Below, one piece after another: positions 26,313-36,499 of a stretch of 64,000 bases of DNA (positions are counted from its first letter, which is position 1; every line of letters starts with the position of its first letter). The DNA is from Mytilus edulis. Taxonomy: Eukaryota. The notes under the pieces were generated by a model. That model had not been told where the DNA came from. It did not search any database and saw nothing but the letters and a program-made list of their open reading frames with translations. Location of the stretch: positions 8,680,001 through 8,744,000 of the forward strand of contig NC_092353.1 in assembly GCF_963676685.1 (NCBI RefSeq). The letters are read 5' to 3'. The position numbers and the translations under genes are program-made.

Positions 26313-28390
26313 CTAATAACACTGTCTAAGAGATCGACTATATTCTGCTACACACTGAATAACATGTGCATGGCACAGCTTGAGAAATTGAACCGATTCA
26401 TCTATGCTTGAAAAAATTGTCAGTGGTTTTCGACCGAGTAACATTTGAAACAGGATTTCGTCGTCATACATGTTTAATTCACAGTAAAGCTGCACTGGAA
26501 AATTGTCACTTAAAATGTCCCACCAGACTTCTCGCTGTGCATTAGTACTTGGACAATTGCAACAAGCGTGTACATAAACATCTTTAAAATTCCTTGAACA
26601 TATATCACATATATCACTTGTTGTATTTGGTATTTCAGTTAGTAATTTAGTGATTAAAAAAGAATTTTTAATCTCATTAAAAGAATTTGAGTGTTTCCAA
26701 AATTCTGTAATTGTCACTGACGTATGAATATTCCTGAAACGTGTGAAGCTGTCATCTGAAATAACACGGTTTAACCAATTGTTTAACTGTATACTATCGA
26801 CTGCGCTATAAACAATAGACTTCCAAATTTGTTTTGTTGGAAATGTTCCATCTTCAATATAGTCAAGAAGGTAACTCATAAGTCCATACTGTTTTAAAAT
26901 GTCAACGATATCAGGAATAAATCCGTAGTGTTTCCTTTGAGAGTCTATAAAGAAAGTAAACAATCTGGTGAGAAATATTCTCTTAGAAATAGACGAAATG
27001 TCTAAAGTACACAGTTTTTGTAGGAAAATAAGTTTTTTGTTGTCTATATATCCTGTTATTGGATGAATACCAAGAATACTTTCGCACATATCAGATCGAG
27101 TCGACGTTTTCAAGTTGAGAATATGTTTCACTATAAAATGTTGAAACCGGTTTAAAGTAGCTTTATCATAAGATTTCATGTTATTCCACACCTCACACCC
27201 GTATAAAACACTGGGTAGTATCACAGTTTTATATAGTTTGAGTAACACACACGGGTTTGTTGCATTTGTCTTTATGCCATTCAACGCAAAGTATGCGTTT
27301 CTGCCTTTTCTGCAGGAACTTTCAGTTCTTTGATTTGATTTAAATCGATAGTTTAATTCTATACCTAAGTGTAGATAGTTATTTGCTATCGGAATACGTT
27401 CATTACCAATAAACCATGGAAAATTGACACTGATCTCTCTCGTATTCACAGAAAATTGAATGATACATGACTTATTTGCATTGAAGCGAAAACGCCATTT
27501 CTTTGAATATTGGTTACACACATTAAGCATACGTTGTAAGGATGCTGGAGATGTGGCAATACATGATATGTCATCTGCAAGAGCAGGTGCACAACAATTG
27601 ATATTGAAAATACCTGTATTTGGATTAAATTTTTCCAGATCACATATTAAATCATTTATAAATACTAAATACAATAAACCTGAGAGCACACCTCCTTGTC
27701 GTACACCTTCTAATACAGGGAAAAAACTTGATTGACATTGATTGACAATAACTGCACTTTTCGTATTATAATGACAGTCATTAATTAATAACCATAGTTT
27801 ACCATTTACACCAAGTTTAAACAGTTTGTACATTAAACCTATCCTCCATACCGTATCAAAAGCTTTCCTGCTATCAAGGAATGCTACAAAAATTTTACTA
27901 AATAATTCAATATTATGAAATATAGTTTCATGTAAATTAAAGGATGCAGTAAGACATCCGAGATATTTCTGAAAGCCTTGCTGCTGAGGGTTCGGAAAGA
28001 CACTTCCATCAAAGACATATAACAACAATCTTGACTTAATAACATGCTCAAACACTTTGAGAACACATGGAAGTAACGTGATTGGTCGGTAACTGTCCGG
28101 TGAGGTCTTCGGTTTATTGTTGCCTTTAAATAATGGAACAAGGAGACCTAGTTTCCATCCATTAGGGATACGACCTTTACTCACAACTAGATTGAATAAC
28201 GATGTTAAGCATCGGACTAAAGTATGTCCACCATACAACAGATGTTCATGTTGAATTTTGTCATGGCCACTAGCTTTTCTACGCTTCAAGAGTTTAATTA
28301 TACCATCGACTTCACTTTCTTTGATAATACCACCTGGTAAATACACGTTTTGTTCATAACAAGATTTTAATATTTTATTGTAATCAAGGT
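26313..28390 (-). pseudogene. RT plus C-terminal Cys/His region of outer LINE ORF2
   Basis: KASGHD, YRPITLL, FLDSRKAFD, GVRQGGVLS, ALADD, YLHLG and CDIC...HACCNC. Open for about 695 codons to the natural stop. Confidence 0.9.
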
Positions 28391-28656
28391 AAAATGATTA
28401 AATGATCGGATGTACTACTAACCGAACCCTCGCTAAGTATTTCATAAGACTTAAGCTGTCTATATATACTATCATTCATAAGAATATAATCAATCATTGA
28501 TGTCTTATTAATAAATGTATAATCTGGCCCTTTATACGCATGCGCCAGTTTGAATGGCAGTGAAAATTTTCGTTCTTGAAATATGATTTAAAAATGCGTA
28601 AAACTTGTGAATATGCAGCATTCGTTAATTTTTATTGGATTTAAATGTGATTAGTA

Positions 28657-29859
28657 ATGCCAAAAAAGACTGACAAAAAAATCAAACAGGACAAAAAGGA
28701 CAAAAAGGACAAAAAACGAAAGAGGGAAAAGGCTAAAGGAAACAATTCATCTGAAGGCTCGACAAGTGACAGTTCTTTGTTTACAAAAGGAAAGAAGAAA
28801 AAGTGTTCAGGTGACATAAAGGTTGACGAAAACAAGGTATTATTAACAGATACACTCAGCGAGGCATTCTCATGTCTTTACAACAACTCACCTACTATTA
28901 ATTACGATCAGAATACAAACATGAACAATTCGATTAATCAGGGATTTAGTCAATACACACCCATTCAATCAAGTACACCAAATTTCCAGTACCATGGCCA
29001 GCCCTACCAGTTTCAACAATTCCCCAGTCCACCACCGCCACCCCCACCCCTACCGCCTCATCTAGCAACAAACGGAATTGAGATGATACTTAATGAATTA
29101 TGTAAAAAAGTTGATGCGATGGAAACAAAACTCAACAAGCTAGACTGTATTGAAGAGCGATTAAACAAATACGAATCGAAATTTACTGCTGTTGATGTTG
29201 ATATGAAATCCTGCAAAGACAGAATAAGTACGCTTGAACATAGTGCCCAATTTATGTCCGATATAAAAGATGAACATCAAGCTATTAAAAAGAAACTTGA
29301 AAAGGTGTCTGAAAGTATAGAAACCTCAAAAACAGTAAACTTAAATGTGAAAAATAGACTTGTCGACGTTGAAAAACAAAACTTTAGTAATAATCTTCTG
29401 TTCTTTGCTATCGATGAACAAATGGAAATTACTGAAATGGATACCGGAATAAACGGGGCACAGGGTGATACCGAGGAGGCGAATGCGGCGGGAAAAAAAG
29501 AACCGGAAAATTGCATCAAAATTATTACAGATTTTCTCGAGACAAGGTTGAACATTAAAGATGCTAAAACGCGCATAAAACTCGAAAAAGCCTATAGACT
29601 TGGTAGGAAAAAGACGAATGCCGAAAAACCGAGACCAATAGTGGTAAAATTTGCTGAATTCGGTGATCGAGAAATGGTACGAAAAGCTTCGGGTCGCTTA
29701 AGACAAACAAGTTTTGGAATTAGTCCTCAGTATCCGACAGAGGTGTTACTAAAACGAAAGAAATTGATACCAGTGATGAAGGAAAAACGTAAAGAAAATA
29801 AAGAGGCATATCTAGTAGGGGATAAATTGTTCATTGAAGGAAAGTTGTGGAAGGAATAG
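28657..29859 (+). CDS. ORF1 protein of inner LINE (basic N-terminus, proline run, coiled coil, L1-like RRM/CTD)
   Basis: NNLLFFAI, AYRLG...PRPIVVKF, FGISPQYP...RKKL and AYLVGDKLFIEGK are typical of L1-type ORF1 RRM-CTD. Confidence 0.88.
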   Translation: MPKKTDKKIKQDKKDKKDKKRKREKAKGNNSSEGSTSDSSLFTKGKKKKCSGDIKVDENKVLLTDTLSEAFSCLYNNSPTINYDQNTNMNNSINQGFSQYTPIQSSTPNFQYHGQPYQFQQFPSPPPPPPPLPPHLATNGIEMILNELCKKVDAMETKLNKLDCIEERLNKYESKFTAVDVDMKSCKDRISTLEHSAQFMSDIKDEHQAIKKKLEKVSESIETSKTVNLNVKNRLVDVEKQNFSNNLLFFAIDEQMEITEMDTGINGAQGDTEEANAAGKKEPENCIKIITDFLETRLNIKDAKTRIKLEKAYRLGRKKTNAEKPRPIVVKFAEFGDREMVRKASGRLRQTSFGISPQYPTEVLLKRKKLIPVMKEKRKENKEAYLVGDKLFIEGKLWKE

Positions 29860-32800
29860 GAGTTTGCGGAGAATGGCTGTAGTACTGTTGAAAGTGGTAA
29901 ATGTAATAAATGTTCATTAAATGTGTGCTCATGGAATATCTCCAAAGGTCTGTTGCGGAAACTAAAAGACAAAGAATTCTTAACGGAAATAACAAATTGT
30001 GATATCGTATGCTTAAATGAGTGCTGGGTCAAATGCCCGACGGAATTTGAATTAAATGGTTATGATAAAAAGTTTGTTTATAGGGAAAAGTGCAACGGAG
30101 GAGGAGTAATTGTTTTCTATAGAAAGTGGTTAAATCCGTATATTGAAGTATTGAATTGTTGTGCTGATAGTATGATATGGTTAAAAATAAGCAATGTTAT
30201 TATGTTTGATAGTAAAGATTTGTACCTGTGTGCTATATATATGCCCCCTGATAATAATGTGTTTTACCGAAAGTATGACTTAGATGTCTTTGAAGTTTTG
30301 CAGGAACAAATAGAACATTACAGTGTATTAGGTAACATTGCAGTGATTGGTGATCTCAACGGAAGAATAGGTTTAGAAAATGACTTCATAATGCAAGACA
30401 ATTTAAATGTATTTAATTGCAATGAAACTGATTTACTTAATTATGAACCTGGTCTACCAAGTAAAAGAACAACAGAGGACATAAAGCCGGCTAATTCATT
30501 TGGTCGTAAAATTTTGAACTTATGTAAATCTTCTGGTATAAGAGTATGTAATGGTCGTTTTGGGAAAAAAAGTGAAACTTTTACATTTCAAAATAAGAAT
30601 GGATGTAGCATAATTGATTATTTGCTTTTATCTTGTGATTCATTTTCTATTGTTAATGATTTTGTCATTGGTGATTTTACTACTTTTTCATGTCATGCAC
30701 CGTTAAAAGTTGTATTTAAACTTAAAGGATTAACTTTAAATGAAATATGTACTTGTAAAACTGTAAAATATGATTGTTATAAATGGAATGAAGGGTTTAA
30801 AGATGACGTTAAAAGGGACCTTGCGGCAAATTCCGATAAAGTTAATGAACTGATGAATAGTTTATCCGACGAGCCAAGGAATATCGACGAAATTGTGAAC
30901 AATATTAATTCGTGTCTCTCCGGTATTGTCAATAAATATACAAAAACAGAAGTGACTAAAGTTTTAAAATGTGATTATTGTAACAGCTCGAAGCGAACTT
31001 ATAAACCTATACATATAGGGCAAGATAAACCGTGGATAAACGATGATTGCAAACAATTGTATATAGAATATAGACGCTCATTAAAACAATTTAACCAAAA
31101 TAAGTGTGAAGAAAATAGACTAATTTTAAATCTTGCTAAACAAAGATTTAAACGAAGCGAGAATAGTTTAAAAAGACGATATAAAAAACAGAGGGGAAAC
31201 ATGTTGAGTTCTATGAGAAAAAAGAATCCAAAGTACTTTTATCGAAAATTCAGGAAACGAAAAAAGGCCATACAAAGCAACATAAAGTTAAACGATTTTG
31301 TGACGCATTTTAAAAACTTAGTTTCTAAAGAAGAAATTGACGACGGACCGGAAGAAGAAGTCAACAATGAAGTCATTTATGACGAATTGGACCGACCTTT
31401 TACGGAGCAAGAAATTGATGTTTGTGTTAAAAAATTGAAAACTGAAAAAGCAACAGGCTATGACAATCTATTAAATGAATTTTTGAAGGAGTGTAAATTA
31501 GCCCTACTGCCACTGTTATGTAAACTTTTTAACGTAATACTTATTACAGGTTGGTTTCCAGAAATATGGGTCAAGAGTGTTTTAGTTCCGCTATTTAAAA
31601 AAGGTCCAGTTGATGAAACAAGAAATTACAGAGGAATTTCGCTTGTGTCTCATGTTGGGAAATTGTTTACTTCTGTCATTAATACAAGACTATTAAAGTG
31701 GTGCAAAGAATACAGTATATTGACTGATGCGCAGTTTGGATTTGTCCCTGGATATGGTACACACGACGCGATTTTTGCCCTTCATTCTATTGTATCAAAA
31801 AGTTTACGTAAAGGAAAACGTCTCTATTGTTGTTTTATTGATTTTGTCAAAGCCTTCGACAGTGTGTCACATTATGTTTTATGGCAAAAAATGTTAAAAT
31901 GTGGTATTAGTGGAAATTTACTGAATCTTATTAAATCAATGTATTCTAAGTTGAAAACTTGTGTTAAATTAGATGGTGAATTTTCAGATTTCTTTCATTG
32001 TAATGTTGGCCTAATGCAAGGCGAATCATTATCACCATTTTTATATGCAATTTATGTAAATGACATAGAAATTGAGTTAATTAAACAAGGAATAGAACCA
32101 TATGAAGTAAAATTGTTAAATCTTTATCTTTTTATGTATGCTGATGATACAGTTCTCTTCAGCGAAAGTATATCTGATTTACAAAAAATGATAGTCACTG
32201 TATATGATAGTTCATACAAGAATGGTCTTGACATTAATTTAAGAAAAACCAAAATAGTTGTTTTTCGTAACAAAGGTGTACTGAAAGAGAACGAAAAATG
32301 GTATTTGAATGGTAAAATGATAGAAATGTGTGATCAGTTTGTATATCTTGGTTTGTTATTAAACTATAACGGTACTTTTACTGTAACACAGAAAACACTA
32401 TCTGAACAGGGTAGAAAGGCTACATTTTGTTTATTGAGTAAAATTTATGATGATTGTTATAACACTGAGACTTTGATGTCCTTATTTGATACATATGTAA
32501 CAAGTATTGTGAATTATGGTTGTGAAATATGGGGTTTCCATAAGGGAGCAGATATAGAAACGCTTCATTTGTATTATCTAAAAAGAATTTTGAAAGTGAG
32601 AAAAACGACTGTAAACCACATGGTGTATTTTGAACTTGGGCGTTTACCATTGTATGTAAACAGATATGTAAGAATGATACGTTACTGGTTGAAGTTATTA
32701 GAATCTAATAATTGTATATTGAATAGTATTTATGAAGATATGTACGAATCTAGTTTTGTCAAACCGAATGATAAACTCAATTGGAGTTGTAAAATAAGAG

Positions 32801-33324
32801 ACATACTAAACAGGTATGGATTTAATGATATATGGTTAGCACAAAATGTTGGAAATAGTCAATTATTTTTGCATGAATTTAAAAAAAGAATTGTTGATAA
32901 TTATATAGCTGAAGCCTTGTCATTTTTTGAAAATACTTCAAAATGTAATTTATATCAATATATACATGATGGACATACTTTGCAATTTTATTTAAATCGA
33001 CCATTGAACAGTTTATACCAGTCATATGTAACTAAATATAGAATCAATTCACATTCACTTAATGTAGAAACTGGAAGATACTTTAATATTTCCAGAAATG
33101 AGCGTGTTTGTAATATGTGTAATAAGAAAGTAATCGAAGACGAATATCATTTTATATTAGAGTGTGATAAATATGTAAATGTCAGAAGTAAATATATTAA
33201 GATATATTATTATAGAAACCCATCTACCTTCAAATTAGTTCAATTACTATCTGTAAGAAATATTAAAGAATTAAATAATCTGGGTAAATACCTCTATGAG
33301 GCAGAGAAAATTCGTAACACTTGA
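29860..33324 (+). CDS. ORF2 of inner LINE: AP endonuclease + reverse transcriptase + CCHC knuckle
   Basis: SWNI, NECW, GDLNG, IIDY, NYRGISL, FIDFVKAFD, QGESLSP, YADD, YLG and CNMC..EDEYHFILEC. The frame is open from directly after the ORF1 TAG; there is no ATG before the endonuclease motifs. Confidence 0.92.
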   Translation, partial: EFAENGCSTVESGKCNKCSLNVCSWNISKGLLRKLKDKEFLTEITNCDIVCLNECWVKCPTEFELNGYDKKFVYREKCNGGGVIVFYRKWLNPYIEVLNCCADSMIWLKISNVIMFDSKDLYLCAIYMPPDNNVFYRKYDLDVFEVLQEQIEHYSVLGNIAVIGDLNGRIGLENDFIMQDNLNVFNCNETDLLNYEPGLPSKRTTEDIKPANSFGRKILNLCKSSGIRVCNGRFGKKSETFTFQNKNGCSIIDYLLLSCDSFSIVNDFVIGDFTTFSCHAPLKVVFKLKGLTLNEICTCKTVKYDCYKWNEGFKDDVKRDLAANSDKVNELMNSLSDEPRNIDEIVNNINSCLSGIVNKYTKTEVTKVLKCDYCNSSKRTYKPIHIGQDKPWINDDCKQLYIEYRRSLKQFNQNKCEENRLILNLAKQRFKRSENSLKRRYKKQRGNMLSSMRKKNPKYFYRKFRKRKKAIQSNIKLNDFVTHFKNLVSKEEIDDGPEEEVNNEVIYDELDRPFTEQEIDVCVKKLKTEKATGYDNLLNEFLKECKLALLPLLCKLFNVILITGWFPEIWVKSVLVPLFKKGPVDETRNYRGISLVSHVGKLFTSVINTRLLKWCKEYSILTDAQFGFVPGYGTHDAIFALHSIVSKSLRKGKRLYCCFIDFVKAFDSVSHYVLWQKMLKCGISGNLLNLIKSMYSKLKTCVKLDGEFSDFFHCNVGLMQGESLSPFLYAIYVNDIEIELIKQGIEPYEVKLLNLYLFMYADDTVLFSESISDLQKMIVTVYDSSYKNGLDINLRKTKIVVFRNKGVLKENEKWYLNGKMIEMCDQFVYLGLLLNYNGTFTVTQKTLSEQGRKATFCLLSKIYDDCYNTETLMSLFDTYVTSIVNYGCEIWGFHKGADIETLHLYYLKRILKVRKTTVNHMVYFELGRLPLYVNRYVRMIRYWLKLLESNNCILNSIYEDMYESSFVKPNDKLNWSCKIRDILNRYGFNDIWLAQNVGNSQLFLHEFKKRIVDNYIAEALSFFENTSKCNLYQYIHDGHTLQFYLNRPLNSLYQSYVTKYRINSHSLNVETGRYFNISRNERVCNMCNKKVIEDEYHFILECDKYVNVRSKYIKIYYYRNPSTFKLVQLLSVRNIKELNNLGKYLYEAEKIRNT

Positions 33325-33469
33325 TTTTGTTATGAACCTTTATTATCAATGTGAATTGTATGCCAAACTCCGCTATATATTAATGCTGTATATGTTTATG
33401 TAAACTGTATAATTTGTGTATGTATTTAATCCTATGAGCTGTATATTTGCTTACGGAATAAAGAATTAT

Positions 33470-34102
33470 ATGTTTAATTTTTCCACCTGAAAATAGCAAT
33501 TGATATCTTTTAACAAATTTTATTAGCTCCGCAGATTTGTTCTTGTTTGAACATATTTTATCTTTCTCAAGACAACTGGCATTTAAATCCCCTGCGATTA
33601 TAACATTGCCATAATTACTATAATGAGTATATAATGCATCTAATATATTAAGTTCTGTTCTATAGTTATCTACAGATTCATCAGATGGTAAATATGCCCC
33701 AAAAATAAATAATGACCCTGTAGATGGGGTTTTGATCTCAAGACCAACAATTCTTTCTGAGTTCGTATCATGAATTTCATTAATAGAAAATTGAAGTGTG
33801 CTCTTATACAGGATGGCAATACCACCTTTGCCATGATATGCGTTATAAAAATTAGGCAAGGAATCAGCTTTACATACACAATTATATCCTTGTTCAATAC
33901 TTGACAAATAATTTAAGGATCTGGTTTTAAGTTTATGTTCAGAGATAATACAAACATCACAATCAGTACTTCTTAATAAATTACTCAAACATACAGTAGA
34001 AGACATAATACCTCTTACATTCCATGCTAAAAGTTTTAGACTAGACATTATAAGAAACAAGGTAACCAAGGTAACAAGGGAAAATAATATTTGACACTGC
34101 AT
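33470..34102 (-). pseudogene. N-terminal AP-endonuclease part of outer LINE ORF2 (truncated by nested insertion)
   Basis: MSSLKLLAWNVRG, ISEH, GKGGIAIL, GAYLPS and IAGDLNA motifs. It stops before the IDY and SDH motifs; the last ~30 aa of the listed ORF are antisense inner-element sequence. Confidence 0.85.
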
Positions 34103-34114
34103 TTTGATTGTTTA

Positions 34115-35072
34115 TTATGAGTCTGGTTCATGATGAGCATCATCCGTAAAGCGTTGATTCCATTCACGGTTGCTTAACCATTTTCTACAATACACGCCTT
34201 TCGGCCAAAAGTTTTCTGTTTCAACAATTTCCGCACAGTTTTCTGCGATATTAAGCTTCGCAGATATCCGACGATCATTGTTCCTTGTGCTAAACAAACG
34301 TAAGTATGTCACATGTACATTTTTAGTTTCTAAGTAACTTAAAATTCCAGCTCGCGTAGATTTTGAGTCAATTCCTGACAAGTAATACCTAGCCGTTCTA
34401 TTCTTTGTAACACCCGTAAAAAAGTTTTCATTTGTCGTTTCAACATGGCTAGTGACTCCTTCAAGTCGAACAGGAATTTTATAAGTTATGTTTTCCGTAT
34501 TTGGTTTTGATATGTCTCTGTTTCCTTCGTTTTGCGTTTCGTGCGTCTTGTACGGTAAACCTGTAACATTATCCTTTTTCTATGTTTTGTTTACAAGTTA
34601 CGGGTGATCGACTTTCTGGTATTTCTATAGGTGATAACTGACCACTTCTCGTACTAGAGTGTATCTGTATACCGGTGGTATGCGGACTATCTGGGGTTCC
34701 CGGTGGGGTTACTTTAGAGGCATAAGATTGTTTTGAATTCCATTTCAACTCGCTAATATTCTTTTGTAGACTTACGCTTAATTTACTATGTCGCTCAAGT
34801 TCGGAGTCAAACCGTTTTACATTAGCTGTATACGAATTAAAGTCAAATTCACCAATAGCTTTGGATTGTTGGTTTATTAGCTTGTGGTTTGCGTCATACT
34901 GTGTAAATTTACGTTCACAATTGATTAGGTGTTGGTTTAATCGCTCATTCGTGCTCGAAAGTTCTGTTTTTAATTTGTCGTTTTCAGTTTTAATGTTTTT
35001 GATAATTCTTTTATTTTCGATTTCGTTTTTCTCTAATAGAACTACTATAAAAAGATAATCTTCGTTTTCCAT
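34115..35072 (-). pseudogene. ORF1 of outer LINE (coiled coil plus C-terminal RRM-like region), split by a 1-nt frameshift
   Basis: ORFs 35072-34569 and 34381-34115 join into one frame if one A is removed from the A-run at ~34575. The intervening frame is open (KDNVTGLPY...FFTGVTKNRTARYYLSGID). Confidence 0.75.
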
Positions 35073-36499
35073 TATCTAAATAAAAGACATCTGTTATCTT
35101 GGTTATCAAGTATTATAAAATAGGTTAGTAATTGACATAATTCTGCATGTAAATAAGGACAATGAACATGATGAAGTAAATAGTGCATGTCAAATGTACA
35201 TGCAGTTACTGTTTAAACATTTCGTTTACTTTAGACAGACGACTTGATTTTCGTTGCAAGTCTCCTACCGAATGATGCGACATGGAAATCATTTCGACAT
35301 GACTATACTTTTCCTCAATTTCTATATTTAAAACGATTTAAGCTGCTTTTATTCAGGATATATATAAGTTATGTAATTACGTTACATCTAAGGAACTTTA
35401 AAAGAATAAATAATTTTAGAATGTTAATACTTTTATCCAATTGAATAAATGTGACTGGCAACCAAATTATAATATATAAATTTGATATCATTATCCACTA
35501 AACTTTTTATCATATAATCAAGTTACACAAGCAGTGTACATTGTAATATTATTATATAACGTGTATATTGAACTGTTGATACGGTTTGACCTCTATTGTT
35601 TGTCTTAAGCTTATACTAAAATGAAGTAACTTATCATGCACGGACTCATGATATAATGTTAGGGAATTAGGAATCAGAAGACCATAATTTACCCCCAAAA
35701 TAAACGGTTGCAATTTTACCTCTCAAATATAAATTACTTTTTTAGTTCATGTTTAGTTGTACCTGGTTGGAATTCTTAGGTTTCAATACAAAAATAATAT
35801 AGCAAGCTGTAGATTAAAAATGTGACATGTACTTGCTTACATCTACTTCATTTTTTCTCTATAGTGGATATTTGTCTTATTGGTATCGTAGCACGTACAT
35901 TTCCTTATTTCTAAATTAAAACTTAGAAGTACCATACAAGGTTTAATGTGTATTGACAACATTGGCCTTGACTAACACCGAACAGCAAGCTATCATGGCT
36001 ATATAGATGCCCCCATAATGACTATAGTGTAAAACTATTCAAACGGGAATTCCAACAGTCTAGTCGAGTATTCAAAAAACGAGAAAGACTTATGAACCAC
36101 ATCAGCAAACGACAACCATTGAACATCATGTTCCTGACTTAGGACACTGCAAACAAATGCAGCGGGTTTAAACGTTTAAATAGGTACCAACCTTCACCCT
36201 TACCTGAAACCATAGTGTCAGTAACATCACAAAATAGAAAGACACATGTACATTAATAGGTGCCTAGCAGTCTTTATTTGTTTATTTTTTTTCATTCATC
36301 TTTGATCCATATTATATCCTTCATAAATGAAAAAAATATTTGAAAAGCATCTACCGGAATAAAGCGTGGGATCAAAGTAAAGTTTAACAATTAGGACGTG
36401 GCACATCAATGTTTGATTTCATGATGTTTCAGGGTGTTAGTTAATGTTAATTTGGTATCACGGTTTGGTGGGATAAAGGAAAAATGTTGTCATTTAGGT

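Follow-up and report, generated by a model that had tools for sequence, protein, structure and literature searches.

How the second open reading frame (ORF2) of long interspersed nuclear elements (LINEs) is translated, and how its product, ORF2p, returns to its own RNA, are long-standing open questions. In the tested cases, L1 and SART1, ORF2 has its own AUG and is reached by termination and reinitiation, across a 63-nucleotide (nt) spacer in L1 and at an overlapping stop-start in SART1 (PMC5972666, PMC5009743). Another route to a downstream frame is stop codon readthrough, whose type III has been defined by three features, namely, a UAG, a G or a purine-rich octamer on its 3' side, and an RNA structure 3' of it (PMC3542737). 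The UAG-G context is reported to be weak alone, the structure of Moloney murine leukemia virus (MoMLV) begins at +12, and carnation Italian ringspot virus (CIRV), a tombusvirus, requires an interaction over >3.5 kb (PMC13517186). The ~3.5-kb pairing of CIRV was found to be required for readthrough, and functions in quality control and cis preference were proposed for it (PMC3234231, Cimino et al. 2011). For CIRV, an ordinary dual-luciferase cassette proved unsuccessful (PMC3234231). Here we describe an RTE-X LINE in a 64,000-nt stretch of the Mytilus edulis genome (GCF_963676685.1, contig NC_092353.1, positions 8,680,001 to 8,744,000, forward strand), which is referred to as the window and in which positions are counted from its first letter. 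ORF1 and ORF2 of this element lie in one frame split by a single UAG, and ORF2 is probably made by programmed readthrough of this UAG, stimulated by a predicted ~3.5-kb duplex with the 3' untranslated region (UTR) and giving a fusion of 1555 amino acids (aa). The features needed for this argument are the following.

28536..33468, plus strand: full-length RTE-X LINE, 4933 bp, delimited by an empty-site joint and sister copies and assigned by its reverse transcriptase (RT) match
28657..29859, plus strand: ORF1, 400 aa, with a basic N terminus, a Pro/Gln tract, a coiled coil, an RRM, and a C-terminal domain (CTD) of the L1 ORF1p type
29857..29860, plus strand: UAG-G, predicted readthrough site, with TAG in 27/27 family representatives and at 116/118 genomic places
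29860..29931, plus strand: open in-frame linker of 24 codons without an in-frame ATG, preceding the endonuclease W
29860..33324, plus strand: ORF2 frame, 1154 aa, with APE endonuclease, RT, and a C-terminal CCHC-like motif
29866..29877, plus strand: 5' arm of the predicted duplex, +10 to +21 from the U of the UAG, supported by a conserved purine run and the duplex tests
33362..33373, plus strand: predicted 3' arm, lying within the 3' UTR and 40 nt from the start of the ORF2 stop codon, recognized by complementarity

ORF1 closes with GAA TAG (29857 to 29859), and the 1154 codons downstream are open in the same frame, so that 400 + 1 + 1154 = 1555 codons run across the junction. This agrees with the first-pass annotation of the window, which had described one frame split by a single UAG, had quoted 21 open codons after the stop as being in frame with the SWNI motif of the endonuclease, and had placed the first in-frame ATG about 80 codons into that domain. 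The last estimate proved exact: the W of SWNI is codon 25 after the stop (29932), and the earliest in-frame ATG, at codon 105 (30172), follows 80 codons later. It also lies beyond codon 54, which we take, using L1 residue numbering, to be the E43-like catalytic residue. Because the first in-frame ATG is so far past the W, an AUG-initiated ORF2p would miss the start of the endonuclease.

The conservation of this junction can be read directly from other copies in the same genome. A DNA search with the window element gave 25 matches in four subfamilies, and a junction-spanning protein search gave 169 matches, of which 150 were listed; 80 regions were retrieved, and 110 loci were read. Query bias is limited, since matches found through ORF1 alone also carry the in-frame TAG. 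From these loci, 29 family representatives were chosen, and the 27 that could be parsed are the basis of all counts of 27 given below; the motif parse was unsuccessful for family P, in which the TAG is present. The pairwise identity of the endonucleases among the 27 is 18 to 95% (median, 32%), and ~25 lineages remain because I/I2 and W/W2 are near-duplicates. All 27 have the in-frame TAG. Among 165 own-genome loci, 10 of which had no matchable junction, 118 distinct junction places were found, with TAG at 116, CAG at one, AAG at one, and TGG at none; the CAG and AAG junctions belong to single decayed copies. The exception at locus L063 is a deletion spanning the stop, and family AA (L110) has a private 8-nt duplication, with 7/7 of its sister copies being in frame. 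The first-pass annotation had raised the alternative that other copies carry a sense codon at this site or an ATG in the spacer, and alignment of copies and families showed instead that the TAG, the frame, and the open spacer are all conserved. A private nonsense mutation or a sequencing error at the TAG is thus rejected.

The codon and the frame persist while their surroundings change. The linker to the endonuclease W varies from 12 to 32 codons in the 27 families, always in whole codons, and the stop shifts relative to the ORF1 CTD, with a tail of 5 to 52 codons. No family has an in-frame ATG upstream of the endonuclease W (0/27); the first in-frame Met is 3' of the endonuclease W-N motif in every family having one, and 3' of the E43-like residue in 25/27. 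The stop codon of ORF2 itself is variable (TAA in 11, TGA in 6, and TAG in 6 of 23 families). Reassignment of TAG in the genetic code is unlikely, since TAG terminates ORF2 in those six families. No NPG or ExNP match, as would be given by the DxExNPGP-like motif of StopGo (2A) LINEs, was found in the 27 junction regions. We conclude that, by its sequence, the conserved UAG junction is a real, clade-wide feature. Family L (L170 to L180) has at least 10 copies that are 99 to 100% identical over 300 nt, several of which are open for ~1530 codons across the TAG; this family is very young, given the identity of its copies.

Relatives were also found at 34 metagenome loci, of which 21 reach the start of the endonuclease and 17 were parsed; a search of viral contigs returned no relatives. 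A match to the ORF1 profile was seen in 7 of the 17. Five loci (L136, L137, L163, L143, and L146) have the in-frame TAG-G without a Met, L143 and L146 being near-identical to families C and B, respectively, and hence not independent. Among relatives without an ORF1 match, nine have a Met 5' of the endonuclease; in one more, the frame stays open as far as the beginning of the contig. The older LINE into which the window element is inserted has an ORF2 preceded by two TAA stops and possesses its own ATG. The lack of an AUG therefore tracks the ORF1-UAG junction.

The sequence just past the stop is constrained at the nucleotide level. Position +4 is G in 24/27 families (C or A in the remaining three), +5 is a purine in 26/27, and +13, +14, and +15 are purines in 26, 26, and 27 of 27, although the amino acid of codon 4 differs; the purine run covers +13 to +16. 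The first codon after the stop itself differs (GAG, GGA, GAA, GAC, GAT, GGG, GGT, GTC, CGG, CAG, and AAA). The first-pass annotation had put forward programmed readthrough or non-AUG reinitiation and had suggested folding the region for a local stem-loop or pseudoknot; readthrough stands as the best reading, but no local structure was found. Folding after the stop is ordinary in the window element (z = 0.32), and 0/27 families show z < -2 in any of five windows. For a compact pseudoknot or hairpin, neither a local excess nor a consistent local partner of +13 to +16 was found with programs that do not model pseudoknots directly. The stimulator looks instead like a long-range pairing with the 3' UTR. 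An out-of-frame ATG is present at 29873 to 29875 (linker nt 14 to 16, within the 5' arm) and also in families B, D, E, and J, with GTG or TTG at the same place in families C, F, G, and H; the ATG probably reflects the duplex sequence and opens a short frame in the window.

The two arms at 29866 to 29877 and 33362 to 33373 are complementary over 12 nt and lie ~3.5 kb apart (-18.6 kcal/mol). Partners were sought by an unbiased scan of each whole element with +9 to +22 as the query. In the window element, 33362 to 33373 was the best partner of the 5' arm, and 0/1145 other 16-mers paired equally well; the scans of other elements repeatedly gave a partner 3.4 to 3.5 kb downstream, at or just past the ORF2 stop. 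In families W and AA, the 3' arm is inside the last ORF2 codons. Controls were run on 22 families, excluding O, Q, I2, and W2 (3' ends missing, rearranged, or duplicate) and family T (locus without the C terminus). The cognate duplex ranked within the top 1% of ~1140 own 16-mers in 12/22 families and within the top 5% in 18/22, and against dinucleotide-shuffled UTRs it reached z ≤ -2 in 16/22. Cognate arms had a mean of -14.9 kcal/mol versus -10.3 kcal/mol for swapped arms (family-swap permutation, p = 5e-5), and the energy peaked only at offsets +5 to +11. The pairing spans +11 to +21, leaving the UAG outside. Covariation of the arms is directly visible in the fitted ungapped register of 23 families: at +15, the pairs are G-C in 11, A-U in 10, and G-U in 2, and at +12, they are G-C in 8, A-U in 4, C-G in 4, G-U in 3, U-G in 1, and U-A in 1. 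Formation of a duplex is predicted from this covarying complementarity.

Since the query and the region had been picked after seeing the data, a held-out test was made on 20 further loci, 9 of which were unscored (junction not located in 4, no stop in 1, and no 3' end in 4). The global best partner was in the 3' region for 7/11 scored loci versus 0.29 expected by share, an expectation that ignores the U-richness of the UTRs, which is covered by the shuffle test on the 22 families. Five of six held-out families passed, namely, AB, AC, AA (2/3 copies), T, and Q, the site of family Q having already appeared in the whole-element scan; family O failed, as did two S-like copies. The metagenome family L136 passed (-20.2 versus -14.1 for the next best partner). 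Two other observations concern the arms. Locus L130 (G000:C8), a near-identical member of family A, carries a single change within the 3' arm, which would disrupt one pair and makes this copy a natural variant of the predicted duplex. In addition, the 5' arm in families C, D, E, H, and B has another recurrent but weaker partner within ORF2, ~+815 to +840 from the stop, which may reflect either chance or a competing pairing.

Taken together, the locus has a UAG with a 3' G, an ORF2 that is in frame and without its own start, and a predicted structure ~8 nt past the stop, and the long-range pairing to a 3'-terminal element, of the type formed by proximal and distal readthrough elements (PRTE-DRTE), is present as a prediction with covariation. 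The anatomy of the junction thus appears to fit type III readthrough on each point except the local stem-loop. In the mechanism that we infer, the majority of ribosomes would terminate at the UAG and release ORF1p, whereas a minority, with the duplex at their mRNA entry channel, would insert an amino acid at the UAG, producing the 1555-aa ORF1-ORF2 fusion. Because the duplex partner sits at the 3' end of the RNA, only full-length RNA would yield the enzyme, which would amount to a form of quality control. The elongating ribosome would unzip the duplex and thereby make the tail available to reverse transcription in cis, and the fusion could co-assemble with ORF1p via the coiled coil. In its broadest form, the proposal is that a lineage of animal LINEs makes a Gag-Pol-like fusion by UAG readthrough switched on by its own 3' UTR, which would serve as an RNA-encoded check for full length and as a switch for cis preference, tying synthesis of the enzyme to release of the 3' end for target-primed reverse transcription; the likeness to tombusviruses would be one of convergence. 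Toward this wider proposal we lean, somewhat more cautiously than toward readthrough itself.

Several points weigh against the readthrough reading. As UAG-G is a weak context alone (PMC13517186), the model depends on the predicted duplex, and the 5' arm is without the local stem-loop that carries it in CIRV. The duplex is weak or absent in families K, V, Z, and N and also in O. Under a stricter, G/C-matched control, the top 5% was reached in only 11/23 families; U-rich UTRs favor G-U pairs, and the family counts are not independent because the families share ancestry. When arms were swapped within groups, two tests were significant (p = 0.022 and 0.001) and two were not (p = 0.067 and 0.17). 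Finally, the stop is replaced by a sense codon in two metagenome copies, both of them frameshifted: TGG in L149 and TAC in L138, the latter with a weak ORF1 match. L149 is a decayed relative of family K, in which a mutation and a retrocopied edit are indistinguishable.

Alternatively, ribosomes could stop at the UAG and restart, independently of an AUG, on a nearby non-AUG codon downstream, with the duplex or looping of the 3' end positioning them and ORF2p being a separate protein. Such a mechanism has precedents, as initiation of L1 ORF2 has been described as AUG independent (PMC5009743) and the coupling in SART1 requires a downstream structure (PMC5972666), and the frame would likewise be preserved if ribosomes restarted at a constant distance from the stop; the out-of-frame NTG at linker nt 14 to 16 of several related families is also compatible with it. 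However, reinitiation does not predict an invariant UAG, which is found in 27/27 families at the junction versus 6/23 at the stop of ORF2. The first codon after the stop is variable, no near-cognate codon is conserved, and the linkers of 5/27 families have no in-frame near-cognate start at all, and we therefore regard reinitiation as unlikely. It is also conceivable, but improbable, that readthrough or reinitiation is real and the duplex serves ribonucleoprotein assembly, cis preference, 3'-end protection, or RT priming. The 3' arm is indeed in the 3' UTR, ~60 nt from a terminal hairpin, and several families retain the UAG although their duplex is weak, yet the distance of the 5' arm from the UAG is fixed (+10 to +21) while the lengths of the linker and the ORF1 tail vary. 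This fixed distance ties the 5' arm to the position of a ribosome at the stop.

Two further explanations act on the RNA before translation. If UAG/G served as a 3' splice acceptor, splicing could place ORF2 behind an upstream exon that provides an AUG. TAG is the sole stop ending in AG, and it is followed here by G, the favored first exon base in the splice consensus, but +4 is C or A in 3/27 families and the upstream pyrimidine tract is missing (23 to 45% pyrimidine in 27 families). In a search with post-stop DNA, 13/13 junction-reaching family-L loci retained the upstream ORF1, with no spliced retrocopy. The site is spanned by contigs from four runs that show no joint or loose end there; this is weak evidence, as the runs are guessed to be RNA and contigs lose rare variants, and the contigs do not bear on expression. 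We discounted a 54-nt contig of depth 2 that returns from 29905 to 29822, as it is probably an artifact of microhomology. Splicing is thus very improbable. A-to-I editing of UAG to UGG (Trp), as at the amber/W site of hepatitis delta virus, is likewise very improbable. UAG is the only stop that a single A-to-I edit opens, double-stranded RNA would be nearby, and L149 has TGG at the site. L149 is, however, a frameshifted, decayed copy; the UAG is outside the +11 to +21 pairing, with its A paired in 9/19 cases, the background level; and edited RNA, being copied back in cis, should leave TGG in the genome, where it is found at 0/118 places. The same four-run contigs show no A>G at 29858. Readthrough at the UAG accordingly remains the reading that we prefer.

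The two proteins that would be joined are of known types. ORF1 matches the profile of L1 ORF1p 2YKO (E = 7e-8), and a structure model of its last 270 aa (predicted local distance difference test score, 84) gave L1 ORF1p as the best Foldseek matches (E = 2e-6), so that ORF1 is, as modeled, an L1-type ORF1p. In the ORF2 frame, the endonuclease occupies residues 23 to 258 (~29926 to 30633; Pfam PF03372, E = 7e-7) and the RT occupies residues 581 to 832 (~31600 to 32355; Pfam PF00078, E = 4e-34), and a CCHC-like zinc-knuckle motif near the C terminus was read by eye. No protease domain was detected in a Pfam search of the window element. A search for longer proteins carrying the ORF1 C terminus yielded no natural full-length fusion, which is weak evidence.

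The bounds of the element (28536 to 33468) and its 3-bp target duplication TAT (28533 to 28535 and 33469 to 33471) follow from the empty-site joint and the sister copies. The joint 28532->33469 is present in contigs from two public runs; it possibly comes from another copy of the outer LINE and does not prove an insertion polymorphism. Sister copy L132 begins at the identical base, 28536, and the 3' end is common to copies L130 to L132. The window element belongs, judging by its sequence, to the RTE-X non-LTR (long terminal repeat) retrotransposons: it has an APE endonuclease and RT in ORF2, an upstream ORF1, no LTRs, and a short simple-repeat tail. Compared by eye, its RT is almost the same as that of M.edulis_333_LINE, a sequence aligned in PMC10294476 (Martelossi et al. 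2023) and labeled there as an RTE/RTE-X cluster with 5 members, and the RTE-X label comes from this likeness, our own RT tree having no named clade references. Five family-A places were counted in this genome, and the 4.93-kb length matches the mean RTE-X length of 4937 bp given in PMC10294476. The element starts (28536 to 28545) with the palindrome GCATGCGC, an NRF1-like motif and a possible internal promoter. The remaining features are as follows.

33430..33462, plus strand: predicted terminal hairpin and AATAAA, with a short tail of the ATT type after it; probable RT recognition signal
34569..35075 and 34115..34579, minus strand: outer LINE, ORF1-like frames
33469..34111, resuming below 28535, minus strand: outer LINE, endonuclease
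26313..28397, minus strand: outer LINE, RT frame

A hairpin just 5' of AATAAA was predicted in all 21 families folded, with no shuffle control, and shows apparent compensatory changes between families, the tails being family specific (ATT, ATTC, GAATT, and CTTGA types). In these models, the hairpin is likely the RT recognition signal. The outer LINE (window positions 26313 to 35075) is older and was interrupted within its endonuclease by the RTE-X insertion.

Our search of the open-access literature, which does not extend to subscription papers or to notes in Repbase, turned up no report of readthrough or long-range pairing in animal LINEs, whether of RTE-X or of other clades. The accessible text of PMC10294476 on RTE-X does not discuss ORF2 translation, an in-frame UAG, or long-range pairing, and that of PMC11203168 has nothing on translation. 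The closest suggestion concerns the Group 3 non-LTR elements of Paramecium tetraurelia, in which ORF1 and ORF2 also form one frame and readthrough of the ORF1 stop was suggested from consensus sequences (PMC5405496, Guerin et al. 2017); those elements are a ciliate clade, and the available part of that report gives no signal, long-range pairing, or test. With L1 and SART1, the mussel element shares a bicistronic LINE RNA and, with L1, the ORF1p fold, but an AUG of their type, at or shortly past the ORF1 stop in the ORF2 frame, is found in 0/27 families. With the invariant UAG and the predicted 12-bp covarying duplex, a different answer to how ORF2 is translated becomes directly testable. If it is correct, many RTE-X copies that carry an in-frame stop would in fact be intact, and their enzyme would be ~400 aa longer than annotated.

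The likeness to the gammaretrovirus MoMLV lies in the UAG-G, a structure from ~+12, and a structural protein fused to an RT (PMC3542737, PMC13517186), whereas the mussel LINE has neither a predicted compact local pseudoknot nor a detected protease domain that could cut the fusion. Long-range-stimulated readthrough, if it operates here, would extend from plant viruses to animal retroelements. The tombusvirus CIRV has the same UAG-G, a polymerase made as a readthrough extension, and a ~3.5-kb pairing to a 3'-terminal element (PMC3234231), and quality control and cis preference could be the rationale in both. The mussel element differs in that its predicted 5' arm starts ~7 to 8 nt past the stop, without a large local stem-loop, and in that it is an animal retrotransposon, unrelated to the tombusviruses by descent.

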